Source of the DNA: an uncultured Granulicatella sp.
GTDB lineage: Bacteria; Bacillota; Bacilli; Lactobacillales; Aerococcaceae
Assembly (NCBI RefSeq): GCF_963528315.1
Contig: NZ_CAURVV010000001.1
Span: 13,464-77,463, forward strand
Length of the DNA: 64,000 nt
Direction of reading: 5' to 3'
Below the pieces are notes generated by a model. The model saw only the letters and a list, made by a program, of their open reading frames with translations, made no database searches and was not told the DNA's origin. Each line of letters opens with the position of its first letter. Position 1 is the stretch's first letter. The translations under genes were made by a program, and so were the position numbers. Below are positions 4,798 to 52,430 of this stretch, one piece after another.

Positions 4798-4944
4798 AAG
4801 ACTTTAATATATGTAGCAATGGACGCCAGCAGCTTCGCAAAGCGAATCTCATGGCTAAACTTTGAGCCAAGGTCTCAAAGTTTCCAGTAAAAGAAGCCAC
4901 AATGATTTGTGGCTTCTTTTACGTATGCTACTAATATAAGTCTT
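4798..4944 (+). repeat. Structured intergenic repeat, long form, copy 1
   Basis: Outer arms aagactttaatatatgtagca / tgctactaatataagtctt. Core GGACGCCAGCAG, hairpin ttcgc-aaa-gcgaa, TCTCATGGC, hairpin actttgagcc-aa-ggtctcaaagt and a 15-bp hairpin gtaaaagaagccac...gtggcttcttttac. Confidence 0.9.
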
Positions 4945-4948
4945 TTCT

Positions 4949-5599
4949 TTACTTATGGTTCTTAAAAAATTCTTTTAAATCATTTAGGCTGATATCGCTA
5001 CTGTTTGATAAAGTTTCTTGTAATTGACCGTCTTTAAAGACTAATAAAGTAGGAATAGAATCAATATGATACTGTTCTGCAAACTTCGCTAATTCATCCG
5101 TCTTATTTTCCGTATCAATATAATAAATTGTAGCATTAATACTTCTTGCAGCCTTTCTTAATTTTGGAGCAAATTCCCTACAATACGGACAAGTTTCACG
5201 TCCAACATAAACAAAACGAATCTGTCTCTTTAGATCTTTCATTTCTTCTTGAATCCTTGTATTATCTAGCTCTACAAAATGACGTGTTGCTTGAACATAC
5301 TCACTGTAACGATAAACCAAAGAGTTATCATTTGAAATAAGAATACGAGGATTAACGAAACATAACATTATAACAATACCAATATAGGATGCAATCAATT
5401 TTTTTCGTGGACTCCAAGTTTTAAAGAAATGATCTTTTAGGAATAGAAAATAATATCCAGATGCTACAAGAAATTGTAAAAAAATCCATAGTAGTGAAAA
5501 TTCACTAACGAAATAATTAAATATCATATAAGCTAAAAGAATAATTAAGAATATACAATCACCTTTTGTAAAAAATTTAATCTTAGGCATCATGCCCAA
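4949..5599 (-). CDS. Membrane-anchored thioredoxin-fold protein (CPYC active site), paralog 1
   Basis: Three predicted N-terminal TM helices and a C-terminal thioredoxin-like domain with FVYVGRETCPYCREFAPKL. Closely related to the 6165..6806 ORF; the Trx domains are nearly identical. Confidence 0.75.
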   Translation of the reverse strand: MGMMPKIKFFTKGDCIFLIILLAYMIFNYFVSEFSLLWIFLQFLVASGYYFLFLKDHFFKTWSPRKKLIASYIGIVIMLCFVNPRILISNDNSLVYRYSEYVQATRHFVELDNTRIQEEMKDLKRQIRFVYVGRETCPYCREFAPKLRKAARSINATIYYIDTENKTDELAKFAEQYHIDSIPTLLVFKDGQLQETLSNSSDISLNDLKEFFKNHK

Positions 5600-5633
5600 C
5601 TCCTTTTACTATTGAATACATGAATCCTATCAT

Positions 5634-5891
5634 TTAAAAGAAATGCATGAGGATTAATGATACAATCATGATACAACTCCAAATGAATAATACAATCATT
5701 TTTCCTTTTTGATTCCAAGTTTTAGGGATAAGATCTTTTTTTAATATGAAATAACATCCTGCTGTTGCAAGAGCTTGAAAAAAGAGCAATAGTGAGGAAG
5801 ATTTGCTAGTAAAAAAACTGTATATCAGGCAACCTAAAAGAACAATGACAAATAACCAATCTCCCTTTGTTAAATATTTAACTTTTGACAT
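5634..5891 (-). pseudogene. Truncated paralog of the membrane thioredoxin (TM domain only)
   Basis: MSKVKYLTKGDWLF... aligns with the N-terminal TM domain of the two flanking paralogs but stops before the Trx domain. Its upstream region is similar to those of the paralogs. Confidence 0.5.
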
Positions 5892-6013
5892 TACATCCAC
5901 ACCCTTTACTATTTTATAATTAAAGTATAGCACTATTCCCTAAAAATGAAAGAGCTTTCTTATGTTTTATGAAAATTTTATTAGTGAAAAATAGTTTAGT
6001 AACGAGAAAAAAA

Positions 6014-6156
6014 GAAAAAAATTTTGTACTAGCAGTAATAAAATCTGATATATCAGATTTTATTAGAGGGAAATTTGAGACCCTAGGCTCAAATTTTAGC
6101 CATGAGATTCGCATTACGAAGCTACTGGCGTCCTTGCTAGCTACAAAATTTTTTTC
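6014..6156 (-). repeat. Structured intergenic repeat, long form, copy 2
   Basis: Reverse orientation. Arms gaaaaaaattttgtactagca / tgctagctacaaaatttttttc; core ggacgccagtag read on the minus strand. Confidence 0.9.
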
Positions 6157-6164
6157 TTTAATAA

Positions 6165-6806
6165 TTATTTGTGGCTCTTTAAAAATTCTTTGAGGTCGTT
6201 TAGGTTGATATCGCTACTGTTTGATAAAGTCTCTTGTAATTGACCATCTTTAAAGACTAATAAAGTAGGTATAGAATCAATATGATATTGTTCTGCAAAC
6301 TTTGTTAATTCATCCGTTTTATTTTCCGTATCAATATAATAAATTCTAGCATTAATACTTTTTGCAGCCTCTTTTAATTTTGGAGCAAATTCCCTACAAT
6401 ACGGACAAGTTTCACGTCCAACATAAACAAAACGAATCTGTTTCTTCTGAGCATTCATGTCATTCTGAATAGTAGAATTATCTAGTTGAACAAAATGATT
6501 TGTTGCTTGCACATATTCAGTTGTTCGGTAAATCCAAGAGTTATTTTTAGAAATAAATAATGGAGGAGCGATTAAAAGAATCATTAAGCAAATAGCAATT
6601 ATGTTCTTTGCTAGAGTAGAAAATTTATCACTTAGAGGCGATTTAGTTACTAAATAGTAAGCTCCTGTTGCTATGACAAATTCATAGAGAATCCAAAGTA
6701 AGGAATTTCCACTAATAAAATAATGAAATAGCAAAAAACAAATAAGAAGAATTGAAAACAATTTGTCATCTTTCGTCAAAGACTTAATCTTACACATTAA
6801 AACCAA
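6165..6806 (-). CDS. Membrane-anchored thioredoxin-fold protein (CPYC), paralog 2
   Basis: Same architecture and the same ETCPYCREFAPKL motif as 4949..5599. Confidence 0.75.
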   Translation of the reverse strand: MVLMCKIKSLTKDDKLFSILLICFLLFHYFISGNSLLWILYEFVIATGAYYLVTKSPLSDKFSTLAKNIIAICLMILLIAPPLFISKNNSWIYRTTEYVQATNHFVQLDNSTIQNDMNAQKKQIRFVYVGRETCPYCREFAPKLKEAAKSINARIYYIDTENKTDELTKFAEQYHIDSIPTLLVFKDGQLQETLSNSSDINLNDLKEFLKSHK

Positions 6807-6893
6807 CTCCTTTATTATTTTATACCTAGATTATAATATAAAACTCTTTTTTTGAAAAACGTTTTTATAAAAGGAGAGAATAAAAATATTAAA

Positions 6894-7031
6894 GAAAAAA
6901 TTTTGTACTAGCAGTAATAAAATCTGACACATTAGATTTTATTAGAGGAAAATTTGAGACCAAGGCTCAAATTTTAGCCAAGAGACCCGTAAGGGGCTAC
7001 TGGCGTCCTTTGCTACTACAAAATTTTTTTC
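6894..7031 (-). repeat. Structured intergenic repeat, long form, copy 3
   Basis: Reverse orientation. The core is almost identical to copy 12 (gagacccgtaaggggctactggcgtc). Confidence 0.9.
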
Positions 7032-7136
7032 TTTAATATTTTGTACTGGAAAACATGAAATCATACTTTTGTCCCATTGTAGTGGGACGAGAATATGCTA
7101 TAATTTTCCTAAGAGAGTTGATAAAGGAGAAGTCTT

Positions 7137-7820
7137 ATGAAGAAACATATTATTCAAGCTATTAAGCTATTTTTCTTTGTAGCAGTCAGTTCAAGAGTTT
7201 TTGTAAGAATGCATAGTTCTGCAGAAATGTTTTTATTTCTTTTATTATGCTATGGCATATTTTTCTATGTACTATTCCGAAAAGAAATGAATCCACCAAA
7301 TTGGAAAACATACCTACATAAGGAAAAAGAATTCCAAGGTCCATCAGAGAAGCAACAAGAGATTTATGAAAAGGCAGGTTTATCAGAAAGTGATGTTGTC
7401 TTCTTTAGAGAGAAAATGAATCGAGCAAAAACTCAAATTCAACAAATTGAGGCTTATACAAAACAAAATAATAAAATCGAAGCCATTGCCAATCGCTACC
7501 AACTATTAACGATTTTAAAAGATTACTTTAAGGAAATTGTCCAACATCCAGAACGCTTGCATGCCGTTGATAAGTTTTTAAATACGTATTTACCAGGCTT
7601 AGAAGAAATTATGGGAAAATATATTGAAATAGAGAAACATATTTCTAAAACTCAAGAAACTTATCAAGTGCTAGATCAAACAATGGAATTATTAGATGAT
7701 TGTTGTCTTCAAGTGGAAGCAGACTATCAAAAATTCCAAGCACAAGATTTTAGTGATTTAAATTTAGAAAGAGAACATTTTCAAAAACAATCTCAAAAAG
7801 AAGAATTTGAAGACTTTTAG
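7137..7820 (+). CDS. xpaC: XpaC-like (5-bromo-4-chloroindolyl phosphate hydrolysis) protein
   Basis: Two N-terminal TM helices and a helical C-terminal part, positioned directly upstream of a TelA-like gene as in Bacillus xpaC-yaaN. Confidence 0.6.
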   Translation: MKKHIIQAIKLFFFVAVSSRVFVRMHSSAEMFLFLLLCYGIFFYVLFRKEMNPPNWKTYLHKEKEFQGPSEKQQEIYEKAGLSESDVVFFREKMNRAKTQIQQIEAYTKQNNKIEAIANRYQLLTILKDYFKEIVQHPERLHAVDKFLNTYLPGLEEIMGKYIEIEKHISKTQETYQVLDQTMELLDDCCLQVEADYQKFQAQDFSDLNLEREHFQKQSQKEEFEDF

Positions 7821-7832
7821 GAGGAAATATAG

Positions 7833-11308: not shown

Positions 11309-13549
11309 ATGATTAACAAAAGAAAGAATCGTCCTATAAAGAAAAAATCACATATTCCATTTCGATTAAATTTATTATTTTTTATCGTGTTTTTTTCATT
11401 TATGGCATTAATCGGACGATTAGCGTATGTTCAATTAGTCAAAGGAGATGACTTCATCGCCTTAGTGAAACGTACAGAAACTTCTACTGCAAAAAAAGCA
11501 GTTCCAAGGGGTTCTATCTATGATAGTAAAGGAAAAGTTTTAGTAGGAAATAAACCAAAATTAGCCGTTAATTTCACTCGTTCGTCAGATGCTACAACAG
11601 CGAGTATGTTGGAAACCGCTAAAAAATTAACGGAGTTTATTACAGTAGATACTAGTAAATTAAGAGAGAGAGATTTAAAAGATTATTGGTTTGCAACTCA
11701 TCCGGAGGAAGCTAGTAAGCTATTAACGGCAGAAGAGAAAAAGAAAGCATCCAAAGAAGGCTTATCGAATAGTAAGACTTATGAGATGCAGTTAGATCAT
11801 ATTACAGAAGAACAAATCAATTATTCTGATAGTGAAAAACAAGCAATTGCTATTTTTACGAAGATGAATAGTGCTTATGCCTTATCAACCGTTACGATTA
11901 AAAATGATTCTGTAACAGAACAAGAAGTTGCTCGAATTAGTGAACGTCTTGGAGAGTTAAAAGGGATTGACATTGATTCAGATTGGGATCGTGAATACCC
12001 AATGGGAGATATGTTGAAGACAATTCTAGGTTCTGTATCTTCTGAAACAACAGGTTTACCTTCTGATAGAGTGCGTTCTTTATTAACTCTAGGGTATTCA
12101 TTAAATGATCGTGTAGGTACAAGTTATTTAGAAGAACAATATGAATCAGTTTTAAGTGGAACAAAAACAGTGGTTCAAAGCCAAACGAATAATCGTGGAG
12201 AAGTGGTTAACCACGAAGAACGTTATGGTGGAAAAGCTGGTTCCAATTTAGTGATGACAATCGATACGGATTTTCAAAAGAAATTGGAAGATATTGTTAC
12301 TAAAGCTGTAGAAGGATTATCAGATGCCACTGCAGACCGAGTGTATGTTGTTGCAATGAATCCAAAATCCGGAGATGTTTTAGGAATTACTGGTAAAAAG
12401 AAAAAATATAATGAAAATTATCAAGTAACTGGAATTGAAGATGATGCCTTAGGAGCTATTAATGGTGCCTTTGGGATGGGGTCAGCTGTAAAAGCGGCAA
12501 CAGTTATTTCTGGATATATGGATGGAGTTATTACAAGAGAAGATAATACGCTTGTCGATGAACCAATTGAGTTTGAAGCTTCTGAACCGAAAAGTTCTGT
12601 ATTCAACCGTAATGGTAGTATTCCTTTAACAGATTTAGATGCGATTGAACGTTCTTCAAACGTTTATATGATTAAGTTAGCCATGAGAATGGGCGGACAA
12701 TATGAGTATAAAAAAGGTGGAAAATTAAATATTAATCTTAACGTATTTGATAAATTACGTGAGTATTATGCTCAATTTGGTTTAGGGGTACGTACTGGAA
12801 TTGATTTACCTAATGAAGGAAAAGGATATAATGGTGGTACAGGTGCTGCCTTCTCTGCACTGGACTTTGCGTTCGGTCAGTTTGACTTATATACGCCATT
12901 ACAATTAGCTCAATATATGGCTACTATTGCCAATGGTGGAACACGTATTGCACCTCGTTTAGTAAAAGAAATTCATTCAACAGGTAAAGATGGAGGAATT
13001 GGTGATTTAGAGACAGTTGTTCCAACAAAAATTATGAATTCTCTCCAAGTAGAAGCAGGATTAATTGATCATATTAAAGAGGGATTATATCGTGTAACGC
13101 ATGGAGCAAACGGAACTTCAGCTTATACGTTTAGAAATTATACGCCTTCTGTTTCTGGTAAAACAGGTACAGTAGAAGCGTTCTACGATGGACCATTACC
13201 ACAATTTAAACAAAAGGAAGTAGAAAATTCTACATTTGCTTCTTATGCACCTTCTGATAATCCAGAAATTGTTGTATCAGTTGTAGCACCATATTTTTCA
13301 AATGGAATTCCTGACGATTTTGCAGCCGGAATTACAAAACAAGTGTATGATGCATACTTCCATCAAGAAAGTTCAACTTCATCAACAAATTCTACAATTG
13401 CTAATGGACAAACAAATGCTCAAGCAGGAAATCGTTCAGCGCAACAAGCTGCAAATGCACAAGTCCAACAAAATAGTCAAGCAGCAACAGTAAGACAACA
13501 ACAAAATGCTACTGTTCCGGTAGCTCCAGTAAGAAGACAAGGACAATAA
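11309..13549 (+). CDS. Class B penicillin-binding protein (PBP2b/PBP2x-type transpeptidase) with Q/N/A-rich C-terminal tail
   Basis: N-terminal TM anchor, the SxxK motif (GSAVKAAT), SSN and KTG(T) (SGKTGT) motifs, and a 61-aa low-complexity tail. Confidence 0.85.
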   Translation: MINKRKNRPIKKKSHIPFRLNLLFFIVFFSFMALIGRLAYVQLVKGDDFIALVKRTETSTAKKAVPRGSIYDSKGKVLVGNKPKLAVNFTRSSDATTASMLETAKKLTEFITVDTSKLRERDLKDYWFATHPEEASKLLTAEEKKKASKEGLSNSKTYEMQLDHITEEQINYSDSEKQAIAIFTKMNSAYALSTVTIKNDSVTEQEVARISERLGELKGIDIDSDWDREYPMGDMLKTILGSVSSETTGLPSDRVRSLLTLGYSLNDRVGTSYLEEQYESVLSGTKTVVQSQTNNRGEVVNHEERYGGKAGSNLVMTIDTDFQKKLEDIVTKAVEGLSDATADRVYVVAMNPKSGDVLGITGKKKKYNENYQVTGIEDDALGAINGAFGMGSAVKAATVISGYMDGVITREDNTLVDEPIEFEASEPKSSVFNRNGSIPLTDLDAIERSSNVYMIKLAMRMGGQYEYKKGGKLNINLNVFDKLREYYAQFGLGVRTGIDLPNEGKGYNGGTGAAFSALDFAFGQFDLYTPLQLAQYMATIANGGTRIAPRLVKEIHSTGKDGGIGDLETVVPTKIMNSLQVEAGLIDHIKEGLYRVTHGANGTSAYTFRNYTPSVSGKTGTVEAFYDGPLPQFKQKEVENSTFASYAPSDNPEIVVSVVAPYFSNGIPDDFAAGITKQVYDAYFHQESSTSSTNSTIANGQTNAQAGNRSAQQAANAQVQQNSQAATVRQQQNATVPVAPVRRQGQ

Positions 13550-13554
13550 TGGTA

Positions 13555-13590
13555 AAAAAGGACTTTTGAATTTTCAAAAGCCTTTTTTTA
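13555..13590 (+). terminator. Intrinsic terminator after the PBP gene
   Basis: aaaaaggacttttgaa / ttttcaaaagcc hairpin followed by TTTTTTT. Confidence 0.7.
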
Positions 13591-13618
13591 TTGCTAAATT
13601 GAATAGACAAGATATAAT
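13591..13618 (+). promoter_or_regulatory. Sigma-A type promoter
   Basis: TTGCTA, a 16-nt spacer, then TATAAT, immediately upstream of the NUDIX gene RBS. Confidence 0.5.
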
Positions 13619-13638
13619 AGTATTAAGGAGGCTTATTT

Positions 13639-14178
13639 ATGAATGATTTTACAGAAGTAACCGTACAAAAAGAAGTGAAATACCAAGGTGGTATTTTTAC
13701 AGTTGAACACCATGTAGTATCTCTTCCAAATGGTAAACAATCAACAAGAGATATTGTTTTACATAATGGAGCAGTAGCAGTTCTTGTTGTTCATGAAGGA
13801 AAGATTTTATTAGTTCGTCAATATCGTAAAGCCATTGAAGCTCATACATTAGAAATTCCAGCTGGTAAATTAGACCACGATGGAGAAAGCCCATTAGAAG
13901 CAGCCAAAAGAGAGTTAGAAGAAGAGGCACAATTAAGTGCAAATGAATGGAAAAAAGTAGTTGATTTAGTACCAACTCCTGGATATTGTAATGAAAAGAT
14001 TCATTTGTATGAAGCAAAGGGAATTCAGCATTTAGAGAATGCTGCACCATTAGATGAAGATGAATTTGTTTCAATTGAGTGGATTCCAGTGGAAGAACTG
14101 ATTCAAAAAATCCATAACGGAGAAATTACTGATGCAAAAACGATTATTGCTGTTCAATATGCAGCATTGCATCAATAG
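13639..14178 (+). CDS. NUDIX hydrolase (ADP-ribose pyrophosphatase-like)
   Basis: Nudix box GKLDHDGESPLEAAKRELEEEAQL. Confidence 0.8.
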   Translation: MNDFTEVTVQKEVKYQGGIFTVEHHVVSLPNGKQSTRDIVLHNGAVAVLVVHEGKILLVRQYRKAIEAHTLEIPAGKLDHDGESPLEAAKRELEEEAQLSANEWKKVVDLVPTPGYCNEKIHLYEAKGIQHLENAAPLDEDEFVSIEWIPVEELIQKIHNGEITDAKTIIAVQYAALHQ

Positions 14179-14186
14179 GAGAAAAT

Positions 14187-14396
14187 ATGTCGAAAGAACC
14201 ATTATTAACACGAAAAGCTTTGAGAGAACATGTAGTAGAGCAAAAAAGGTCTCAAAATAGTGAAGAGATTGAATGGAATGATTCACCAGTTCCTAAAAAG
14301 CCTTTTTTAGAAAGATATAATCGCTTTTTAACGATTTGGATGATTGCGATGATTGTACTCATTATTGTAGCAATTGGTGTTCAAATCTTCTTATAA
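14187..14396 (+). CDS. Small tail-anchored membrane protein
   Basis: 69 aa with a charged N-terminus and one C-terminal TM helix. It starts 8 nt after the NUDIX stop. Confidence 0.4.
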   Translation: MSKEPLLTRKALREHVVEQKRSQNSEEIEWNDSPVPKKPFLERYNRFLTIWMIAMIVLIIVAIGVQIFL

Positions 14397-14427
14397 TGGA
14401 TTGTTGTGCTGAATGCTAGGTTAGGGC

Positions 14428-14456
14428 TAGACAATTCATAAGAGCTTTGATAAAAT
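14428..14456 (+). promoter_or_regulatory. Candidate promoter of the pheST leader
   Basis: TAGACA, a 17-nt spacer, then TAAAAT. Confidence 0.35.
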
Positions 14457-14459
14457 AAC

Positions 14460-14714
14460 ACATATATTTAAAGACATTGATGGAAAAGGGTTATAGAAAT
14501 TTTCATTATTAGGGAGAAAGGTCAGCGACTGAAAGCCTTTCATGAAAATCTACAGCTTTTCACTTCCGAAGTCGCCATTGGGATTCGATAGATGAATAAT
14601 GGATCGGTTCGTTACCGTTAATAACGCCGAGTGCCTGCAATGCAGGAATGAGGGTGGTACCGCGATAAATTTCGTCCCTTACAATTTTTAGGAATTGTAA
14701 GGGACTTTTTGTTT
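14460..14714 (+). promoter_or_regulatory. T-box leader (Phe specifier) with terminator
   Basis: Canonical T-box sequence AATGAGGGTGGTACCGCG at 14647-14664. A terminator hairpin gtcccttacaatt/aattgtaagggac plus T-run lies at 14674-14714. A candidate UUC specifier is at 14564-14566. Confidence 0.85.
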
Positions 14715-14742
14715 ATGAAAATGATTTATAGGAGGAAATAAA

Positions 14743-15792
14743 ATGAATTTAGCAGAAATGAAACAACAATTTGATGCGATTCGTCAAGATGTATTAGCTG
14801 CATTAGAAACAGTTCAAACGTTAAAAGAAGTTGAGCAAATTCGTGTGCAACAATTAGGAAAAAAAGGACCTATTACAGAAGTTCTAAAAAATATTAAAAA
14901 TATCGTTCCAGAAGAACGTCCACAAGTAGGAGCGTTAGCAAACGAATTACGTAGTATAATTGAAGAAAAAATTACAAGTATTAAAGCTGACTTAGAAGCA
15001 AAAGCATTGGTGGAATCTTTACGTAAAGAAACAATCGATGTTACAATGCCAGGTCGTCCAATGACAGTCGGTACAAAACACGTATTAAGTCACGTGAGTG
15101 ATGAAGTAGAAGATTTCTTCATTGGATTAGGATACCAAGTAGTAGAAGGTCCAGAAGTAGAATCAGATCACTATAACTTCGAAATGATGAACTTACCAAA
15201 AGATCATCCAGCTCGTGATATGCAAGATACATTTTATATTACACCAGAGTATTTATTACGTACGCAAACTTCACCAGTTCAAGCACGAACAATGGAAAAA
15301 CATGATTTTTCTAAAGGGCCATTAAAAATGATTAGTCCAGGACGTGTATTTAGACGTGATAATGATGATGCAACTCACTCACATCAATTCTATCAGATTG
15401 AAGGATTAGTAATTGATAAACATATTACAATGGCGGACTTAAAAGGGACATTAGCTGCATTTGCCAAAGAATTATTTGGTCAAGAACGTGAAGTTCGTTT
15501 ACGTCCAAGTTACTTCCCATTTACAGAACCTTCTTTAGAAGTAGATATTAGCTGTTTCAAATGCGGTGGACAAGGCTGTTCAATTTGTAAAGGAACAGGT
15601 TGGATTGAAATTTTAGGTTCAGGGATGGTTCATCCAAACGTATTAGAAGCTGCTGGAGTAGATTCAAGCGTTTATGGTGGATTTGCCTTTGGATTAGGAC
15701 AAGACCGTATTGCAATGTTGAAATATGGAATCGAAGATATTCGTTCACTTTATACGAATGATGTTCGTTTCTTAAATCAATTTACGAAGTAA
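14743..15792 (+). CDS. pheS: Phenylalanine--tRNA ligase alpha subunit
   Basis: 349 aa with class II aaRS motifs ([32 protein letters not shown]). Confidence 0.97.
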
Positions 15793-15804
15793 GGAGAAGA
15801 GAAT

Positions 15805-18225: not shown

Positions 18226-18229
18226 GGCG

Positions 18230-18396
18230 CTACGGAATAAAAGAATTTCCTTACGTAGTAAGGTCGCCAGCAGCCTCGCTCTGCGAGTCTCATGGCTAAA
18301 ATTCGAGCCTCGGTCTCGAATTTTTCCTACAAAAAAAGCCAGAAATTTTCTGGCTTTTTTTGTTTTTACTACGAAGGAAATTCTTTTATTCCTTCG
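18230..18396 (+). repeat. Structured intergenic repeat, long form, copy 4
   Basis: Starts 5 nt after the pheT stop. Core GGTCGCCAGCAG. Hairpin 2 carries the compensated variant aattcgag/ctcgaatt. Hairpin 3 (aaaaaaagccagaaattttctggcttttttt) looks like a bidirectional terminator. Confidence 0.9.
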
Positions 18397-18558
18397 CTTG
18401 TAACGTTGAAAGAAAGAACTTTCTTTGTCTGTGTCTTTAATTTTCTTTAAATAAAAAAATATTTTTCCGCCTTTTTTTCGTATATATAAGTGAAGTGTAA
18501 TTTCTAGTGAAAAGTCAATGGAAGATACTTTCAAACAATAGAGAGAGGATGAAATTAT

Positions 18559-22364: not shown

Positions 22365-22436
22365 ACATGATATTAGTTGAAGAATGAAGGAATTGAGTGT
22401 ATGATAAATTGTCATAAGATTTTAGGAGGAAAAAAA

Positions 22437-23138
22437 GTGAAAAAATACCAATATTTAATTTTTGATTTAGATAATACAATTTTTGATTTTTGGGGAGCAG
22501 AAGACTATGCTTTATCTCGTATTAGCCAAGAAGATGGATTAGAATGGACTCCAGAAGTTTTAGAAGTTTACCGTACAATGAATAAAGGCTTATGGGAACA
22601 ATATGAGCAAGGAGAGATTTCTCAAACTTATTTGAATGAAGAAAGATTTGTTCGTTGGTTTGCATATTATGGAATTCAGGTAAATGGAAGTGTTTGTGAG
22701 AAAAAATTCCGTCACTATTTAGCAGAAGCGAATACGATGATGCCAGAAGCATTAGACATTATTCATGAATTAAAGAAAGACTTTGTCATGGTTGCAGCTA
22801 CAAATGGAATTGAAGAAACTCAATTACTACGTTTGAAAACAGCTGGCTTAGAAAACTTCTTTGAAAAGTTATTTATTTCTGAAGTAGTGGGATATCGTAA
22901 GCCAAGTAAAGAGTTTTTTGAAGCTGTAGTAGAGCAAACTGAAGGAATGACGATTGAGAACGCCTTGATGATTGGGGATAGTTTTAAGGCGGATATTTAT
23001 GGAGCGAGTCGTGTTGGAATGGATACTTGTTGGTATATGGAAAATCCAGAACGACCAACTGAACCTGAGGAATTGTTGGCTGTAGAGCCAACATATCAGA
23101 TTGGGCATTTATCCGAACTGAGAGAGTTTATTTATTAA
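22437..23138 (+). CDS. HAD-IA hydrolase (YjjG-like nucleotidase family)
   Basis: GTG start 6 nt after AGGAGGA. Motif I FDLDNTIFDF; motif IV MIGDSFKADIYGA. Confidence 0.7.
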   Translation: MKKYQYLIFDLDNTIFDFWGAEDYALSRISQEDGLEWTPEVLEVYRTMNKGLWEQYEQGEISQTYLNEERFVRWFAYYGIQVNGSVCEKKFRHYLAEANTMMPEALDIIHELKKDFVMVAATNGIEETQLLRLKTAGLENFFEKLFISEVVGYRKPSKEFFEAVVEQTEGMTIENALMIGDSFKADIYGASRVGMDTCWYMENPERPTEPEELLAVEPTYQIGHLSELREFIY

Positions 23139-23214
23139 AGGATTTAGTTATAGTAGCATTAGGACGCAAGCAGCCACCTGGCGGTGTCTCATTGCTGTTA
23201 CTATGAGAATCCTT
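23138..23214 (+). repeat. Structured intergenic repeat, short form, copy 5
   Basis: aaggatttagttatagtagca...GGACGCAAGCAG-hairpin-TCTCATTGC...ctatgagaatcctt. It lacks hairpins 2 and 3. Confidence 0.85.
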
Positions 23215-23671: not shown

Positions 23672-23745
23672 ATGGATTTGTCTATAGTAGCATTAGGATG
23701 GCAGCAGCCCTGCGGTCTCTCATTGCTGTTACTATGAAAATCCTT
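23672..23745 (+). repeat. Structured intergenic repeat, short form, copy 6
   Basis: Same orientation as copy 5 and a nearly identical right half (tctcattgctgttactatgaaaatcctt). Confidence 0.85.
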
Positions 23746-33020: not shown

Positions 33021-33096
33021 ATGACTTTCTAATGTAGCAATGGACGGTAGCAGCCTCGCAAAGCGAGTCTCATACTCACGCTACATTGGAAAGTAT
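33021..33096 (+). repeat. Structured intergenic repeat, short form, copy 7
   Basis: atgactttctaatgtagca-ATGGACGGTAGCAG-ctcgc aaa gcgag-TCTCATACT...gctacattggaaagtat. Confidence 0.85.
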
Positions 33097-33154: not shown

Positions 33155-33296
33155 ATAAATGACTCATAATAGTAGCAAAAGTACTAGAAGCCGAGTGGCT
33201 TCTAGTACAGGAAATTTCGAGACCTTAGGCTCGAAATTTAGCAATGAGACAGCTTTGCTGGCTGCTTGCGTCCTAGCTACTATTATGAGTCATATT
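33155..33296 (-). repeat. Structured intergenic repeat, long form, copy 8
   Basis: Reverse orientation. Core GGACGCAAGCAG...TCTCATTGC. Hairpin 2 has a compensated insertion (aaatttcgag/ctcgaaattt). It ends 4 nt from the ATPase stop codon. Confidence 0.9.
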
Positions 33297-35284: not shown

Positions 35285-35386
35285 GAGAAGATAAGAAAGT
35301 CTTAATTTTTAAGGATTTTCCCTTTATAAATTTAAAAATTCATAGTAGAATGGTTTCATATCTTAAAAATGAAGGTGGGAGAACAA

Positions 35387-37204: not shown

Positions 37205-37346
37205 AGACTTTCCTGATATAGCAGTATTAGGACGCTAGCAGACAGCTTTGCTGTCTCATAGCTAAAATTTGAGCCTAAGGTCTCAAATTTCCCTGCGATA
37301 GAATCTGTTTTACAGATTCTATTGCTCATACTGCTATGGAAAGTCT
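37205..37346 (+). repeat. Structured intergenic repeat, long form, copy 9
   Basis: Arms agactttcctgatatagcagta / tactgctatggaaagtct. Core GGACGCTAGCAG...TCTCATAGC, a compensated GCTA/TAGC pair. Confidence 0.9.
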
Positions 37347-37425
37347 TTTTTTATTTATACTATTTGTTATTTCTCTTTATTTAAAATATAATAAATGGTA
37401 TAAAAATATTTTAAAGGAGAAGGTT

Positions 37426-38328: not shown

Positions 38329-38335
38329 AGGGCGT

Positions 38336-38481
38336 GGAAATTGAGTTTTTGGTATAGTAGTACTAAGACGGCAGCAGACCTTCGGTCTCATGCCTAAAAT
38401 TTGAGCCTAGGTCTCAAATTTTCTTGCAATAGAATCTGTAGTCAGATTCTATTGCTCGTACTACTATAAAAACTCATTTCC
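38336..38481 (+). repeat. Structured intergenic repeat, long form, copy 10
   Basis: Arms ggaaattgagtttttggtatagtagtac / gtactactataaaaactcatttcc. Core AGACGGCAGCAG...TCTCATGCC, a compensated GGCA/TGCC pair. Confidence 0.9.
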
Positions 38482-38518
38482 ACTTGAAACGAAAATTATG
38501 AGAGTGCGTATGATAAAG

Positions 38519-38598
38519 TAAGTTTTTTGTACAGTAGAATTAGGACGCCAGAAACCCTGCGGTCTCATGGTTCATACTACTATAAAATATCATTTCCA
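38519..38598 (+). repeat. Structured intergenic repeat, short and degenerate form, copy 11
   Basis: GGACGCCAGAAA-ccctgcgg-TCTCATGGT core. It is flanked by partial duplications of the copy-10 right arm (catttccacttgRaacgaaaattatgagag occurs twice). Confidence 0.7.
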
Positions 38599-38734
38599 CT
38601 TGGAACGAAAATTATGAGAGAGAATATAAAAACTCATTTTTACTTGTGTTGTGTGTAATTTTTTTCAGTTTAGTTATTAGTATCAACCTTTTAAATTATG
38701 ATACACTTACGTAGATTAATGGAGGGAGATATTT

Positions 38735-39645: not shown

Positions 39646-39791
39646 GAATTGAGTTTTTATAGTAGTACGAGTAGTAGAATCTGTTGTGACAGATTCTACT
39701 ACAAGAAAATTTGAGACTACAGGCTCAAATTTTAGCCAAGAGACCCGTAAGGGGCTACTGGCGTCTTAGTACTACTATATCAAAGAAACTC
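39646..39791 (-). repeat. Structured intergenic repeat, long form, copy 12
   Basis: Reverse orientation. The core is identical to copy 3 over gagacccgtaaggggctactggcgtc. Confidence 0.9.
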
Positions 39792-43899: not shown

Positions 43900-44790
43900 T
43901 TGAATTTAACATGGACTTATCCGTATTCATCACCCATGATGATGCGTAGTTTTTTACAAGAAAAGGGAATTACAAAAACATTTTTAGCCCATGTCAAACG
44001 AAATGGGAAATTACTTGTAAATGGTCGAGAAGAAATTGTTCTAAAGACTTTAGTGCCTGGAGATGTATTGACGATGGTGATTCCTCCAGAAGGAGAGCAT
44101 GAAACCGTTGTTCCGAGTCATATTCCTTTGGATATTTTATTCGAGGATGACTATTTGTTAATTGTGAACAAGCCACAAGGAACAGCTTCGATACCATCAC
44201 AATTACATCCAGACCAATCAATGGCGAATCGTGTAAAAGGTTATTTACAAACGAAGAGAACCCAAGATTGTGTGACTCATGTTGTAACGAGATTAGACCG
44301 TGATACAACGGGAGTGATGATGTTTGCCAAGCATCGTGTGGTTCATGCATGGATGGATCAGGCGCTTCGAAATAAAACGATTCAAAAAACGTATCATGCG
44401 ATTGTGACGAAACAGGATGTTTTAAAAGAACATGATTTGATTGATGCACCGATTGGACGAACGGATGATTCGATTATTAATCGTTGTGTGAGACCGGATG
44501 GGAAGCCGTCTTTAACGGAGTATTGGTTAGAAGAAACGTATCAGCATAGTCAATTGGTGAAGATTCGTCTGCATACGGGGCGTACGCATCAGATTCGTGT
44601 GCATTTTAGTTGGTTAGGTTGTCCGTTGTTAGGGGACGATTTATATGGTGGCGAGAAGATTGAGCCTCTGGTAAGGCAGGCGCTTCATTGTAGTCAGCTG
44701 TATTTTGTTCATCCGATGACGGGGGAGCATATGTGTGTGAAGGCTCCGTTGCCGAAGGACATGGCGGAGTGGATAGAGAAAGATAGATAA
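43900..44790 (+). CDS. RluA-family 23S rRNA pseudouridine synthase (YjbO/RluD-like)
   Basis: TTG start. HVVTRLDRDTTGVMMFAK and HTGRTHQIRVH motifs. Confidence 0.85.
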   Translation: MNLTWTYPYSSPMMMRSFLQEKGITKTFLAHVKRNGKLLVNGREEIVLKTLVPGDVLTMVIPPEGEHETVVPSHIPLDILFEDDYLLIVNKPQGTASIPSQLHPDQSMANRVKGYLQTKRTQDCVTHVVTRLDRDTTGVMMFAKHRVVHAWMDQALRNKTIQKTYHAIVTKQDVLKEHDLIDAPIGRTDDSIINRCVRPDGKPSLTEYWLEETYQHSQLVKIRLHTGRTHQIRVHFSWLGCPLLGDDLYGGEKIEPLVRQALHCSQLYFVHPMTGEHMCVKAPLPKDMAEWIEKDR

Positions 44791-44808: not shown

Positions 44809-44935
44809 GGAACTTTCCTATAGTACTAGGACGCCAGTAGACCTTCGGTCTCTTGGCTAAAATTTGAGCCTAAGGTCTCAAATTTTCCTGTAATAAAAGC
44901 CGCTTTGCTTTTATTACTCGTACTATGGGAAAGTT
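44809..44935 (+). repeat. Structured intergenic repeat, long form, copy 13
   Basis: aactttcctatagtac-TAGGACGCCAGTAG-gacc ttc ggtc-TCTCTTGGC-hairpin 2-hairpin 3-gtactatgggaaagtt. Confidence 0.9.
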
Positions 44936-44981
44936 ATTTTTATCTTCAGGGGGAAGGGAGGAAGAATACGTACAAAAATGG

Positions 44982-45046
44982 GGTTTTCTATGGTACTAGG
45001 ATGCTAGAAGCCAGCTATGCTGTCTTATCGTACTATGGGAAAGTTT
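44982..45046 (+). repeat. Structured intergenic repeat, short and degenerate form, copy 14
   Basis: GGATGCTAGAAG core. The right arm cgtactatgggaaagtt is identical to that of copy 13. Confidence 0.65.
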
Positions 45047-45118: not shown

Positions 45119-46063
45119 TTATTCGTCAGCAGACATACATTCATCTAATTCTATTACGGAAATGCTCAATTGTTTTGCGCCTTCTTCTTTAGAAAGAAGA
45201 CCATCTTTAATCAAACTGATAATCATCATTTTCTTTCCTTGTTCGATACCTTCTACTTTACCTTCTGCTCTGCCTTCTGTTACCCCTTCCATCCTTGCAT
45301 CTTTCTTTTCTTTTTCTATAGTAGCTAAAAAACTTGAATATGCCTGAAGATATCGTGTTCTTTCATCGTACATTTCTCGTTCCTCCTTTGCCCAGTCTAC
45401 ACGACTCACAATTCGATCCGCTTGTTCTAATATTTTTTCAGGACTTTGTGTATATGGTTGATTCCCAAAAAACTCAATCCATCGTACTTTATTGTATTCT
45501 TGTATCTTATCTTTATTATACTTCTCTAATTCTAAAAATGCCATTAAAGCTAAGTCTTGTTCTTCTTCAAATCCTTTAAAATAGACTTTCAATTCATCAT
45601 TTGTATTTTTTTCTTTGAAGCAGAATACGTGAACCATTTTATCGTCCTTAAAATACCTTTTTTGAGTGATGGCAATGGTGTACACTGGTAACAATTCTTC
45701 TGCGATTTTATGGGTTTCTACTCCAACTTTTTTATGTTTATCTGCATTTTTAGTCACTTGATTACATAGATATAACCATAAACGCTTAATAAAGTCAAAT
45801 TGATAAGCTACTTGGATTTCAATTATCACTTGTGTACCATCATTTAATTCGGCTAATACATCAATACTGGTGACATAAGTTTTTATATCTTCAAATTGAT
45901 GACTGTGTATTTGAGTTCCATCAAGTATTTTTACATGATGGACAGGTAAGTCTAGAATGTCCCTTATAAACTGTGCTGTTATTTCAGGATTACTGAAAAC
46001 TTTCTTTGCCATTAAATCCATCATTGGCCTTGCATCTTTGATACGTTCTACCATTTTTATCAT
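45119..46063 (-). CDS. Rpn family recombination-promoting nuclease / putative transposase, copy 2
   Basis: A paralog of 18559..19446 (ARPMMDLMAKKVFSNPEITAQFIRDILDLP...IIIEIQ). Its C-terminus has extra EG-repeats. Confidence 0.7.
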   Translation of the reverse strand: MIKMVERIKDARPMMDLMAKKVFSNPEITAQFIRDILDLPVHHVKILDGTQIHSHQFEDIKTYVTSIDVLAELNDGTQVIIEIQVAYQFDFIKRLWLYLCNQVTKNADKHKKVGVETHKIAEELLPVYTIAITQKRYFKDDKMVHVFCFKEKNTNDELKVYFKGFEEEQDLALMAFLELEKYNKDKIQEYNKVRWIEFFGNQPYTQSPEKILEQADRIVSRVDWAKEEREMYDERTRYLQAYSSFLATIEKEKKDARMEGVTEGRAEGKVEGIEQGKKMMIISLIKDGLLSKEEGAKQLSISVIELDECMSADE

Positions 46064-46236: not shown

Positions 46237-47592
46237 TTAGTTGTTATAATATTGTTGGATTCCTTGAACGATACCGTCTACTAATTTTTGTTGATATTCT
46301 TTTGTACGGATTTTTTGGGATTCTTTTGAATCGTCCATGTATCCTAATTCTAATAAAACAGCAGGTTTGTTCGTTTCACGTAATACAGCAAAACTCTTCG
46401 CTAATAATCCAGCATCTTTTGCTTGAGTCGTTGCTAAAACAGATTGGTGAATATATGAACCAAGTTTATAACTATATTTCAAGCGAGTTGGATTATCATG
46501 CCATTTTTTATTAATGACAGAAGGAATATTTCCAGTTGGTAAGTACGTATAGGTTTGAATACCATCTTCACCACTGTCTAGTCCGTGACCTGTTGCATTA
46601 AAGTGAATGCTAATAAACATATCCGCATTTGTTTCATTCGACATTCTAGAGCGTTCAGTAATGAAATCAAGATAAACATCGCTTGAACGACTCATAATAA
46701 CTTTGTAACCAAGTGATTCTAGTTTTGTTTTTAATTGTTGAGAAACTTGAAGATTTAAGTCTTTTTCCTTTAATCCTAAATATTGAGCACCAGGATCTTT
46801 ACCTCCGTGACCAGGGTCTAAGAAGATGACTTTTTGATAGTTGTTAGTAGCAAATGGTAATTCATCCGAAGATTTTTCTTCTTTAATTTCTTTAATCCAT
46901 GCACCGTTTCCTTTAAAGCTATGAAGAGCACCATTAATTAAATGAGAACCTGTTACATATACACCATTTTCATCTAGATAGAACCATGCTTGATAATTAG
47001 AATCATAAATCCATTCTTTTTTCGCCATGTATCCACCTGATTTTAAGTAATAATCATCTTTCCAAGTGTTTTGAGCATAGCGTCCACTAGAAGTTAGATA
47101 AAACCATGATTGATAGGTTGGATCAAAGACCCATTCATTTTCAGCCATTGCACCTGAAGATTTTAAATAGTATTCATCTTTCCATTGATTGGCTAACATA
47201 ATTCCTTGAGGGTTAAAGACATACCATCTTTGATTGATAGACATCCATTCGTTTAGAGCTAAAATTCCAGAGGACTTTGCATAATACCAATGATTGTTTT
47301 GATAAATCCATTCATTATTAGCCATCTTTCCATCTTTATGGAAGTAGTAGGAATTCCAAACTGTATTTTTTAACATAACACCTTGTTCATTATAGTAATA
47401 CCAATGATTGCCAACTTGTTTCCATTGATTTTTGATCACTTCCTCTTTTGGAGGTGTAGGTACTTCAGTATTCTTTTTATTTTCTTTTTGCTCTTGTTGT
47501 GGAGCATTAGTAGTTTCTTGTGCAAAAATTGGAGTTGAAGCACAGAGGCAAGTCCCAATTAGTAAAGTTGATAAGAAAATTTTCTTTTTCAT
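46237..47592 (-). CDS. N-acetylmuramoyl-L-alanine amidase (Amidase_3) with N-terminal choline-binding-type cell-wall repeats
   Basis: Signal peptide, then about 8 repeats of the (W/Y)xxxxxxWYY/FxxxGxMxxNxW type. The C-terminal part has VIFLDPGHGGKDPGA and SIHFNA amidase_3 motifs. Confidence 0.8.
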   Translation of the reverse strand: MKKKIFLSTLLIGTCLCASTPIFAQETTNAPQQEQKENKKNTEVPTPPKEEVIKNQWKQVGNHWYYYNEQGVMLKNTVWNSYYFHKDGKMANNEWIYQNNHWYYAKSSGILALNEWMSINQRWYVFNPQGIMLANQWKDEYYLKSSGAMAENEWVFDPTYQSWFYLTSSGRYAQNTWKDDYYLKSGGYMAKKEWIYDSNYQAWFYLDENGVYVTGSHLINGALHSFKGNGAWIKEIKEEKSSDELPFATNNYQKVIFLDPGHGGKDPGAQYLGLKEKDLNLQVSQQLKTKLESLGYKVIMSRSSDVYLDFITERSRMSNETNADMFISIHFNATGHGLDSGEDGIQTYTYLPTGNIPSVINKKWHDNPTRLKYSYKLGSYIHQSVLATTQAKDAGLLAKSFAVLRETNKPAVLLELGYMDDSKESQKIRTKEYQQKLVDGIVQGIQQYYNN

Positions 47593-49912: not shown

Positions 49913-49914
49913 CA

Positions 49915-50050
49915 GGAGTTGAGAAAACAAGCAGAAGCATCCCGCTTCTCGCCTAAGTTGACTGAAGTCCTTGGGCCGATAGTAATGTTTATTTAATGAA
50001 GACATTGGCAGCGGGGATATTTTGTTCTCGTTGCTTTTTTGCTTTTTTCT
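49915..50050 (+). promoter_or_regulatory. L20 leader (ribosomal protein autoregulatory leader) with attenuator terminator
   Basis: Structured GC-enriched leader between the promoter and infC. A gcagcg...cgttgc hairpin followed by TTTTTTGCTTTTTT lies at 50008-50050. The position matches the Firmicutes L20 leader. Confidence 0.6.
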
Positions 50051-50076
50051 CTCAAAAATTTTGGAGGTGAACAATC

Positions 50077-50592: not shown

Positions 50593-50614
50593 AAAGTAAC
50601 AGGAGGAAAGTCTC

Positions 50615-50815
50615 ATGCCAAAACAAAAAACACACCGTGGTTCAGCTAAACGTTTCAAACGTACAGGTGGTGGAGGATTAAAACGTTCACAAGCCTTCAC
50701 AAGCCACCGTTTCCATGGTAAAACTAAGAAACAACGTCGTCACTTGCGTAAACAAACAATGGTTCACGCTACTGACATCAAACGTATTAAACAACAATTA
50801 AGTCAAATGCGTTAA
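50615..50815 (+). CDS. rpmI: 50S ribosomal protein L35
   Basis: [18 protein letters not shown]. Confidence 0.97.
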
Positions 50816-50884
50816 TTCAGCACGCAAAACTATTACATTTTCTAGACAGTCGCAAGAGACTGAAAGACCAAGGAGGAATTAATT

Positions 50885-51244
50885 ATGCCACGTGTTAAAG
50901 GTGGAACAGTTACTCGTCGTCGTCGTAACCGTGTTTTAAAATTAGCTAAAGGTTACTACGGAGCGAAATCAAAATTATTTAAAACAGCTAAACAAGCAGT
51001 CATGAAATCATACATGTATGCTTACCGTGACCGTCGTCAAAAGAAACGTGACTTCCGTAAATTATGGATCGCACGTATCAATGCGGCAGCTCGCTTAAAC
51101 GGATTAAGCTACAGCAAATTAATGCACGGCTTAAAATTAGCTGGTATCGAAATGAACCGCAAAATGTTAGCTGACTTAGCAGTTAACGATGCAGCAGCAT
51201 TCACTGTTTTAGCTGAACAAGCTAAATCAGCATTAGCTAAATAA
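50885..51244 (+). CDS. rplT: 50S ribosomal protein L20
   Basis: [26 protein letters not shown]. Confidence 0.97.
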
Positions 51245-51367
51245 TTATCTGAGAGATTTTTTACAGTTAGTAAAGGAATCACTCGATATTCCAATAAGAT
51301 AAACCACCATTGAGCCCCGTTAAACTCAATGTGAAGAAATACCAAGAAGAATTTGGAGGAAATAATC

Positions 51368-51811
51368 GTGCGTACAACATTTATGGCAAAAGCTAGCACT
51401 ACTGAACGTAACTGGGTTGTAATCGACGCTACTGATGTACCATTAGGACGTCTTTCAGCTGTTGCTGCAAGCATTTTACGTGGAAAAAACAAACCAACAT
51501 TTACACCTAACGTTGACACAGGTGATTTCGTAATCATCATCAACGCTGATAAAGTAGCTTTAACAGGTAAAAAAGCATCTGATAAAGTTTACTATCACCA
51601 CTCAAACCACCCAGGTGGATTGACTGCTCGTACAGCTGGTGAATTACGTGCAAACAACTCTCGTAAATTAGTTGAATTATCAATCAAAGGCATGTTACCT
51701 AAAAACTCTTTAGGTCGTCGTCAATTTACTAAATTACATGTTTACGGTGGAGCTGAACATCCACATGCTGCACAACAACCAGTAGCAGTAGACATCCAAT
51801 CACTAATTTAA
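51368..51811 (+). CDS. rplM: 50S ribosomal protein L13
   Basis: GTG start after GGAGGAAATAATC. The product begins [21 protein letters not shown]. Confidence 0.95.
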
Positions 51812-51824
51812 GGAGGAAAAAGCA

Positions 51825-52217
51825 TTGGCTCAAGCACAATACCGCGGCACTGGACGCCGTAAAAACTCAACTGCCCGTGTTATCTTAGTACCAGGGACAG
51901 GTAAAATTACTATTAACAAAAAATCAATCGAAGAATACATTCCATTTGCTTACTTACACGAAGTAATCAAACAACCTTTAAACATTACTGAAACAATCGG
52001 AACTTACGATGTATTAGTAAACGTTAATGGTGGTGGATTCACTGGTCAATCAGGAGCTATCCGTCATGGTATCGCTCGTGCATTATTAACAGTTGATCCT
52101 GATTTCCGTGGCGCTTTAAAAGCTGCTGGTTTATTAACTCGTGATCCTCGTATGAAAGAACGTAAAAAACCAGGTCTTAAAAAAGCTCGTAAAGCTAGCC
52201 AGTTCTCAAAACGTTAA
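51825..52217 (+). CDS. rpsI: 30S ribosomal protein S9
   Basis: TTG start after AGGAGGAAAAAGCA. Ends ...[12 protein letters not shown]. Confidence 0.95.
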
Positions 52218-52239
52218 TATTTTATATATCAACATTTCA

Positions 52240-52271
52240 ACACTCTGTGGTTATACCACAGGGTGTTTTTT
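52240..52271 (+). terminator. Intrinsic terminator of rplM-rpsI
   Basis: acactctgtgg/ccacagggtgt hairpin followed by TTTTTTG. Confidence 0.8.
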
Positions 52272-52286
52272 GCGTATATGAGTATA

Positions 52287-52430
52287 GAAATTGACTTTTC
52301 CGGTTGTAGCAATGGACGCCAGAAGACCTGCGGTCTCTTGGCCAAAAATTGAGCCTGTAGTCTCAATTTTTCCAGTACTAGAATCCGATGGGACGGCTTC
52401 TAGTACTTGTGCACGTGGAAAAGTCATTTC
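52287..52430 (+). repeat. Structured intergenic repeat, long form, copy 15
   Basis: Arms gaaattgacttttccggttgtagca / tgcacgtggaaaagtcatttc. Core GGACGCCAGAAG-gacc tgc ggtc-TCTCTTGGCC. Hairpin 2 is one bp shorter in both arms (aattgag/ctcaatt). Confidence 0.9.

Follow-up and report, generated by a model that had tools for sequence, protein, structure and literature searches.

What kind of entity is a repeat that folds into several hairpins and recurs, between genes, 15 times in one bacterial chromosome segment? The question is raised by a 64,000-nucleotide stretch of DNA from an uncultured Granulicatella sp. [quoted passage not shown] We find the first option to be the best supported of the three, by an arm consensus common to the copies, by differences among strains, and by inverted repeats and flanking duplications in streptococcal relatives; our answer, which we consider moderately probable, is a non-autonomous, MITE-like family of palindromic DNA repeats residing at gene 3' ends. 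To judge from its sequence, the window is a segment of the chromosome of a Granulicatella species; its G+C content is 32.8%, its PheT protein recurs without change on an ENA metagenome contig, and bases 13584-18504 are 93.8% identical to a contig (L078) of an uncultured Granulicatella metagenome-assembled genome (MAG).

The 15 copies, 10 long (about 135 bp) and five short, are non-coding units of 70-160 bp that together occupy about 1.8 kb, or 2.8% of the window (about 3% had been claimed), and dozens more are present in the Granulicatella loci that we fetched. The conserved core GGACGCCAGCAG (12 nt, at most two mismatches) occurs 16 times in the window, compared with 0.62 occurrences expected, the matches at 22546 and 35084 being chance matches inside open reading frames (ORFs); the pattern of the second hairpin, TTGAGCC-n-GTCTCAA, occurs eight times, compared with 0.01 expected. 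A covariance model was built from the ten long copies (alignment A2; 136 positions, 39 pairs), a check that the first-pass annotation had proposed, and the whole window was scanned with filters off. The model recovered exactly the 10 long and five short copies that had been listed from the letters, the long ones at 111-143 bits, and all of the listed starts are within a few bases of the folded ends; no further match in the window was better than E = 0.1, and copies were also found in related genomes.

Minimum-free-energy folds yield the same plan in every long copy, namely a closing stem (P1) around three hairpins, four helices in all, and every fold contains the parts that had been described (an outer stem, the core and a variable hairpin, with TAAA, hairpin 2, TTCC and hairpin 3 in the long forms). 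From 5' to 3', a long copy consists of P1 (16-28 bp), an unpaired TAGGAC, a 4-bp helix P2, 2-nt internal loops (GY and CA/CT) and a variable hairpin 1 whose first two pairs are a conserved AG:CT, followed by TAAA, a sequence-conserved 10-bp hairpin 2, TTCC, a perfect, variable hairpin 3 of 12-16 bp, the 3' arm of P1 and a T-rich tail. In the archetype (37205..37346, (+) strand; covariance model match 37209-37345, 133 bits; fold -66 kcal/mol, z -9.9) the P1 5' arm spans 37205-37227 and TAGGAC 37228-37233, P2 joins 37234-37237 with 37259-37262, the internal loops are GC and CA around an apex at 37240-37256, and TA leads on to hairpin 2 (37265-37290), CCCT, hairpin 3 (37295-37325), the P1 3' arm (37328-37346) and a T run. 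The long copies have fold z scores of -8.1 to -10.9 relative to shuffled sequences, equally good on either strand; short copies, with P1 and hairpin 1 only, have z scores of -3.6 and -5.5. The elements are 35-49% G+C, with a conserved, GC-rich core and GACTT ends. Across copies the P1 arms have a common consensus, GACTTYCC..ATAGTAGCA and its complement, and so form terminal inverted repeats; GTAG is found in most of the 5' arms. The GGA and TCC junctions may pair with each other, the one pointer to this being that the two window copies with AGA also have TCT.

Besides the long and short forms there is an intermediate with hairpins 1 and 2 and without hairpin 3 (L078 727-825), and P1-only mini-hairpins exist in three of the fetched loci (L120, L131 and L102). 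Because these three reduced forms exist, the modularity of the family appears to be one of nested internal deletions. The mini-hairpins (L120 about 7180-7205, L131 about 7005-7035, L102 4011-4065; for example, GGACTTTCCTGGTATGGAAAGTC and then a T run) occupy the places of full elements in other strains, resemble ordinary terminators and may be deletion remnants. We also considered that P1 might be a host terminator into whose loop the element had inserted, an idea prompted by a comparison of window 13549-13639 with L078, and excluded it: the arm consensus is common to the copies, and the upstream gene at that site differs.

The family extends well beyond the window. A genome scan for hairpin 2, with one genome per species, gave at least 117 loci. 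Among the matches listed, the model identified full-length copies in several Granulicatella genomes, on several contigs in each; it identified further copies in a Vagococcus (Enterococcaceae) MAG and, among streptococci, in dozens of species, S. pneumoniae being one of them. Matches in Blautia and other taxa were to the hairpin only. In G. elegans ATCC 700633, for example, copies lie at 64, 776 and 1,248 kb, and the Granulicatella copies often form head-to-tail arrays of two or three. With copies on so many contigs and in these three groups, the first-pass annotation's reading of a genome-wide element, as opposed to a local artefact, holds. BLAST searches of plasmid and phage collections gave no match, and 2.9 million viral contigs contained three pattern matches; carriage by plasmids or phages was rejected on this basis. 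In S. pneumoniae (L091 7007-7138, (-)) and several S. mitis genomes a core copy sits in the infB-rbfA spacer, co-oriented with the operon; in a Granulicatella locus (L056) this spacer is 43 nt long and a copy lies after rbfA instead.

Comparison of strains indicates that the copies are unstable. We scanned metagenomes with the 607-aa protein encoded at 35369-37192 and obtained same-species loci (97-99% identity) and relatives. Downstream of this gene a single copy (X) is present in the window and in L121. In L120, X is joined by a second copy (Y) and by a P1-only mini-hairpin; in L131, Y is accompanied by a mini-hairpin whose deletion end points differ; and in L119, Y precedes X. The element after the second CorA gene is on the (-) strand in the window, L121 and L122 and on the (+) strand in L120, L123 and L131, a difference that, on sequence comparison, is an inversion in place. 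At the same sites, then, copies differ among strains of one species in number, orientation and internal deletions, and in relatives within Granulicatella (about 79% protein identity) the 5 kb to either side are free of copies and the orthologous gene is followed by an ordinary terminator; the CorA pair and gene 39888-40802 are missing from these related species. Overall, copies have been gained, lost, inverted in place, multiplied into head-to-tail arrays and carried along by duplication of neighboring genes.

The units of an array lie about 40 nt apart, and the spacer contains a motif, TTATGAGAGnrCGTwT, that recurs across genera (in other Granulicatella and in Vagococcus loci) and that also flanks single copies in the window, at 52446-52461 and, in part, at 52272-52291; no convincing ribosome-binding site or promoter was found in this linker. 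Neighboring duplicated hairpins sometimes have identical stems and an inverted loop (L020 642-960 and the flanks of L024 and L027), the hairpins concerned being hairpin 3 of adjacent array units in L020 and the two terminator copies flanking streptococcal units in L024 and L027. The inverted loops suggest recombination or template switching inside the hairpin.

The streptococcal relatives connect the family to an RNA already in the databases. SSRC8 is an sRNA (small RNA) of S. pyogenes, validated by Northern blot and mapped as a 281-nt RNA by rapid amplification of cDNA ends (RACE), for which no promoter was identified; its BLAST 'homologues' in other streptococci cover only positions 142-250 or so, and the authors did not present it as a repeat (Tesorero et al. 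2013, PMC3675131). That stretch is exactly the core that is common with the Granulicatella family. Against the corresponding Rfam model, RF02616 (SSRC8_2; 281 positions, gathering score 72 bits), the window copies score 28-43 bits (E 3e-10 to 2e-5), over positions 149-209 only and on the opposite strand, the aligned parts being hairpin 2, the P2/hairpin-1 module and the TAAA junction; the window copies do not attain the gathering score of any Rfam family. Whole streptococcal units align with SSRC8_2 from end to end at 56-92 bits (n = 7), and three of the seven reach the gathering score (L008 at 92, L024 at 80 and L079 at 73 bits).

The S. parasanguinis/australis-type unit is about 255 bp long and consists of a left part beginning (C)AGATTGAAGAYAAAGT..., the multi-hairpin core, and an AT-rich right part ending ...AATAGTTTGTCTACATTC, its ends being inverted repeats of each other. 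At no fewer than 12 distinct streptococcal loci a terminator hairpin specific to the locus stands, in duplicate, on either side of the unit, the flanks having exact words of 12-23 nt in common (null: 95th percentile 10, maximum 12); the left copy of the duplicated hairpin has lost its T tail, and the outermost helix of the SSRC8_2 model is formed by the two terminator-hairpin copies. The mutS2-pepD spacer is 380-605 nt long in S. parasanguinis with the unit (including one nested insertion, and with the unit of L204 in the other orientation and shortened), and in a relative (87% identity) it is 80 nt long and holds a single terminator; all of the S. parasanguinis alleles that we fetched at this spacer were filled. 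In the S. parasanguinis locus L202 (about 1005-1170), some 165 nt of another structured sequence are nested inside hairpin 2 of an SSRC8-type unit.

On the strength of these alignments, the Granulicatella family is homologous to the core of the approximately 255-bp streptococcal element catalogued as SSRC8_2. The two branches differ in several respects: the Granulicatella copies have neither the left part of about 25 nt, nor the right part of about 95 nt, nor the duplicated terminator hairpins of the outer helix; the window copies are multi-copy and often arrayed, whereas in the paper, as in the Rfam name, SSRC8 figures as one sRNA gene; and the orientation favored in Granulicatella is antisense to the SSRC8 RNA. 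The novelty that the first-pass annotation had claimed is accordingly reduced, in that the streptococcal branch was already in Rfam and the core matches the center of its model, and it survives in part, in that the window copies fall below the gathering score. Literature searches, both with sequence strings and on the topic, brought up no account in which the family is treated as a repeat; what we did not find described is the Granulicatella branch, its abundance and arrays, and SSRC8 as a dispersed, terminator-associated element with inverted-repeat ends.

The placement of the copies bears on what they might do. All copies in the window lie between long ORFs, 11 of them 0-23 nt from a stop codon, and both orientations occur, as had been noted. 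Orientations were counted from crude ORF calls: between co-directional genes, 29 Granulicatella copies are sense and seven antisense, and where genes converge (all taxa together) 31 of 38 copies are nearer the co-oriented gene and seven are not. Of the four (-) copies in the window, three come after (-) genes and the other one (6888-7037) is upstream of such a gene; because (-) copies accompany (-) genes, the bias appears to track transcription, as opposed to replication. Past the genes that end at 32998, 37192, 38328 and 44790 there is no other site of terminator type, and the copies at 52285 and 39646 adjoin canonical terminators. In a consensus terminator scan of 32.9-52.6 kb only hairpin 3 of copy 33159 passes, the P1 tails being T-rich but interrupted; in streptococci hairpin 3 is followed by TTTTCT. 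A role as terminator or in protection of 3' ends is plausible on these features, and the first-pass option of a terminator or stabilizer gains from the placement past stop codons, the sense bias and the genes that have no other terminator site, the role itself being read from this setting.

Covariation of the stems was evaluated in an alignment of 64 full-length copies from Granulicatella and the Vagococcus MAG (alignment A3). In this alignment, which was fitted to the model and hence favors pairing, 97.1% of pair cells hold standard pairs, compared with 79.5% when partners are shuffled; both sides change in 31 of the 39 pairs (386 cells), and sliding the 3' partners by 1-3 columns leaves only 27-46% pairing. 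An independent MAFFT/RNAalifold alignment of the ten window copies has compensated changes in 18 of 39 pairs. Constraint on a single RNA strand normally leaves a clear excess of G·U pairs over A·C mismatches, and no such excess is present, either in the 64 copies (33 G·U versus 35 A·C) or in any single helix; among 65 distinct streptococcal copies the counts are 25 and 19, again no clear excess. Since the G·U excess is absent and the mismatches look fresh and are symmetric, stem complementarity is thus maintained either at the level of DNA or for the two strands alike. The junctions, by contrast, with nucleotides GGACG, AGC, TAAA and TCC, are almost invariant in the same alignment; G26, G27 and C29 are kept in 62-63 of the 64 copies, and the same motifs recur in streptococci.

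Taken as MITE-like DNA elements, the copies would behave as follows. The full unit is a near-perfect palindromic assembly, with inverted P1 arms around three hairpins and with invariant junctions, and the short forms and P1-only mini-hairpins would be derivatives by internal deletion. Elements would persist almost only just past stop codons, mostly in sense orientation and co-transcribed with the upstream gene, where the long closing stem and T-rich tail may act as, or replace, a transcription terminator and 3'-end protection. Complementarity of the arms may be kept by self-templated correction of hairpins or cruciforms, or else by a structure-specific enzyme; the loop inversions between duplicated hairpins point to correction events within the hairpin. 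In streptococci the element would insert at intrinsic terminators and duplicate the whole terminator hairpin.

Of the features that characterize MITEs, the family has a length below 300 bp, multiple non-coding copies, common terminal inverted repeats, and differences in presence and copy number among related genomes; target-site duplications are absent in Granulicatella and take the form of the exact 12-23-nt duplications in Streptococcus. Several observations weigh against this reading. At Granulicatella copies the longest word common to both flanks is 11 nt, within the null (95th percentile 10, maximum 12), so that there is no target-site duplication; no exact pair of filled and empty alleles was obtained for any single insertion; and about 1.7 Mb of fetched loci contained no transposase or autonomous partner with matching ends. 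IS1182-family elements such as ISSmi2 are candidates for the partner, long and variable duplications being reported for that family. Clean empty sites were not to be had from related Granulicatella species, in which the neighboring genes are different, and flank-to-flank BLAST gave filled sites or differences in array size. Invariant junctions beside fast-changing, always paired stems are the classic mark of a nucleic acid whose fold is functional, as opposed to junk in decay. Finally, the orientation statistics depend on the crude ORF calls and the streptococcal loci have the opposite bias (12 sense to 31 antisense, many of these loci being the same orthologous site in different species), a T run follows hairpin 3 in few window copies, and the terminator role is itself deduced.

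An explanation that we regard as unlikely, yet as one to be reckoned with, is that the copies are a functional structured RNA family, either a cis-acting module of 3' untranslated regions, serving as terminator, RNase barrier or protein-binding site and selected gene by gene, or a set of SSRC8-like sRNA genes in which a promoter in the linker drives each unit. It would account for junctions that are invariant across genera beside stems that covary, and for an orientation bias that tracks transcription; the streptococcal homologue SSRC8 has been detected by Northern blot and RACE (PMC3675131), and the conserved linker motif has a weak -35/-10-like spacing. Selection at the RNA level, as the third first-pass option would have it, nevertheless found no support, because in no helix are G·U pairs in excess over A·C mismatches, and the two strands are equal in how well they fold. 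The SSRC8 strand, moreover, is opposite to the sense orientation favored in Granulicatella, no SSRC8 promoter was identified in the original paper (PMC3675131), and copies vary between close strains by gain, loss, inversion and deletion, and related species do without copies.

A further proposal, which we put forward as speculative and rather improbable, is that of a structure-directed mobile element that homes to the hairpins of intrinsic terminators and duplicates the entire hairpin when it inserts, the target-site duplication then having the stem-loop's length and sequence. The four-way junction, with its invariant nucleotides, would be the recognition site of a structure-specific recombinase and SSRC8 a by-product transcript, and resident copies, looking like terminators, would attract further insertions and so give rise to the Granulicatella arrays.

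We consider it doubtful that the repeat is a folded single-stranded or cruciform DNA site for a structure-specific enzyme, whose four-way junction would be bound or cleaved in the manner for which REP/RAYT, the ends of IS200/IS605 and integron attC sites are the comparators. The maintenance of Watson-Crick complementarity only, with symmetric transition mismatches, speaks for such a site, as do the invariant junctions and the GTAG of most 5' arms; the duplication of whole hairpins in streptococci is suggestive of cleavage where an extruded hairpin has its base, and the occasional inversion of loops between duplicates is in keeping with it. However, no HUH, RAYT-type or other candidate gene was found beside the elements, the nearby PD-(D/E)XK (Rpn-like) genes look coincidental, and what the orientation bias follows is the direction of local genes, not one direction of replication. 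Finally, the view that copies exist only through duplication of neighboring genes in this region is refuted, for although some copies were co-duplicated with genes (those at 6011 and 6888 flank thioredoxin-like paralogs, and those at 38334 and 39646 follow CorA paralogs), the remaining ones follow unrelated genes, and the family is also present in other genera and on many further contigs.

Interspersed repeats that are small and structured are well known as a kind of element, and the family described here is a new branch of that kind, not something unprecedented. Pneumococcal BOX elements are likewise modular, intergenic and stem-loop forming, have variable internal modules and belong to the same bacterial order; compared by description, they consist of distinct boxA, boxB and boxC modules in variable number, whereas here P1 surrounds three fixed hairpins. 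The BOX consensus presumably has no similarity to the family beyond the word TTTGAGC. EFAR is said, in a description of 2007, to be a modular, folding repeat of about 170 bp that sits near the stop codons of a Lactobacillales species. The 'Efa-1' repeat of Enterococcus faecalis (163 nt, 65 copies; PMC2267715) is probably the same as EFAR. The likeness between EFAR and the present family is one of description, and the Vagococcus MAG that carries the present family belongs to the Enterococcaceae. The pneumococcal infB-rbfA copy (L091) stands apart from the three families that Croucher et al. 2011 described (PMC3049150). One of these, SPRITE, also lies near gene 3' ends, is enriched between convergent genes and is terminator-like; it is described as one 18-bp duplex with a long U-rich tract behind it, a GC content of 28% and AAAA/TTTT ends (PMC3049150). 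Identity with SPRITE was rejected on a comparison with this published description, as the present family has four helices, 35-49% GC and GACTT ends, and the first-pass statement that the two are unlike is supported. ERIC/IRU, Correia (NEMIS) and RPE-type MITEs of Proteobacteria are likewise small, palindromic, intergenic repeats that are co-transcribed and have orientation-dependent effects on mRNA, but their sequences and hosts are unrelated and their target duplications are short and fixed (TA, for example), compared with none in Granulicatella and hairpin-length duplications in Streptococcus.

For annotation, an abundant repeat family in a little-studied oral genus is worth masking or labeling in Granulicatella and its relatives, the more so as the repeats mark sites of gene duplication, inversion and strain variation. 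For Rfam, a family curated as an 'sRNA gene' is a dispersed element with inverted-repeat ends at streptococcal terminators, which alters how SSRC8 homologues are to be read. Fast-changing Watson-Crick stems with no G·U excess, set between invariant junctions, are a clean natural data set on the upkeep of palindromes (whether through self-templated repair, through selection or through an enzyme), and the terminator hairpins found in duplicate in streptococci are a testable lead to an unusual insertion mechanism.

The individual copies in the window, apart from the archetype, are as follows, with model matches (CM) and folds given in brackets. In the first 19 kb there are four long copies. The copy at 4798..4944 (+) (CM 4801-4942, 126 bits; fold -62 kcal/mol, z -8.6) sits where two genes converge, 11 nt past the stop of a YfhO gene (2151-4787). 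The copies at 6011..6159 (-) (CM 6018-6149, 116 bits; fold; neighboring gene assigned by Pfam) and 6888..7037 (-) (CM 6894-7024, 127 bits; fold) are near-duplicates; the former lies about 10 nt past the stop of a thioredoxin-like gene, 6165-6806(-), and the latter upstream of the same gene in a divergent intergenic region, the sole copy that does not follow a gene 3' end. The copy at 18234..18392 (+) (CM 18243-18383, 111 bits; fold -82 kcal/mol), 9 nt past the pheT stop, has a 28-bp closing stem and a hairpin 3 resembling a two-way terminator, and is conserved in the 94% identical Granulicatella MAG (L078 5626-5762). Three short (+) copies follow: 23138..23214, with P1 and hairpin 1 only (CM from 23141; fold z -3.6), which begins at the stop codon of gene 22377-23138; 23674..23743 (CM from 23675, E 0.04; core match; fold), 15 nt past the stop of gene 23277-23657; and 33024..33094 (CM from 33025; fold z -5.5), after the stop of gene 31622-32998.

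Close to the last of these is the long copy 33159..33293 (-) (CM 33161-33295, 122 bits), 5 nt past the stop of 33300-35177(-), whose hairpin 3 supplies the site that passed the terminator scan (33208-33181). Beyond the archetype, a two-unit array on the (+) strand consists of the long copy 38334..38483 (CM 38345-38475, 134 bits), 8 nt past the stop of CorA paralog 1, a linker at 38484..38521 with the motif TTATGAGAGTGCGTAT at 38496-38511 (by comparison of array sequences), and the short copy 38522..38591 (CM 24.5 bits, E 2e-5); the long copy 39646..39790 (-) (CM 39651-39787, 143 bits) comes after CorA paralog 2. The long copy 44811..44935 (+) (CM 44812-44937, 120 bits; fold z -9.1), 19 nt past the stop of 43900-44790, is followed as a second unit by the diverged short copy 44980..45046 (+) (CM from 44983, E 0.08; fold), with the core GGATGCTAGAAG. 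The last long copy, 52285..52432 (+) (CM 52294-52425, 115 bits), comes after a canonical terminator (52239-52267) and has linker motifs on either side.

Repeat copies separate tandem paralogs in two places, at 4949-6806 (two thioredoxin-like membrane proteins and a 99-aa fragment, 5634-5933) and at 37336-39637 (CorA-like transporters). PD-(D/E)XK_2 (Rpn-like 'transposase') paralogs, about 73% identical, are encoded at 18559-19446(+) and 45119-46063(-) in the window and at L060 2658-3655 and L061 2487-3256, and have in common a conserved upstream region of about 110 nt, AAAAAAATATTTTT..CTTTTTTTCGTATCTATA. A link between these genes and the repeat was rejected: the conserved unit begins about 110 nt upstream of the gene and the repeat lies outside it, and the association of three of the four genes with a repeat upstream was judged to be coincidental, two of the loci having been chosen for containing the repeat.

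A scan of the window with Rfam at the gathering threshold gave a ribosomal protein L20 leader (RF00558, 59.3 bits) at 49923-50045, with infC-rpmI-rplT downstream, and one tRNA gene (RF00005, 48 bits) at 23839-23921 (-), which adjoins the short copy at 23674, and nothing else. At 52617-63689 some 20 small genes (110-220 aa) are arranged in tandem, their many paralogs forming the repeat families D1-D3, D7, D9, D11, D15 and D19; the multi-hairpin repeat is not present in this array. The genes sampled from it belong to immunity families, PoNi N and C domains (60468-61133) and SMI1/KNR4-SUKH (54924-55379), and the array resembles an immunity-gene array of the type found downstream of polymorphic toxins. 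The direct-repeat families D12 and D18 are explained by the choline-binding repeats of an N-acetylmuramoyl-L-alanine amidase encoded at 46237-47592 (-).

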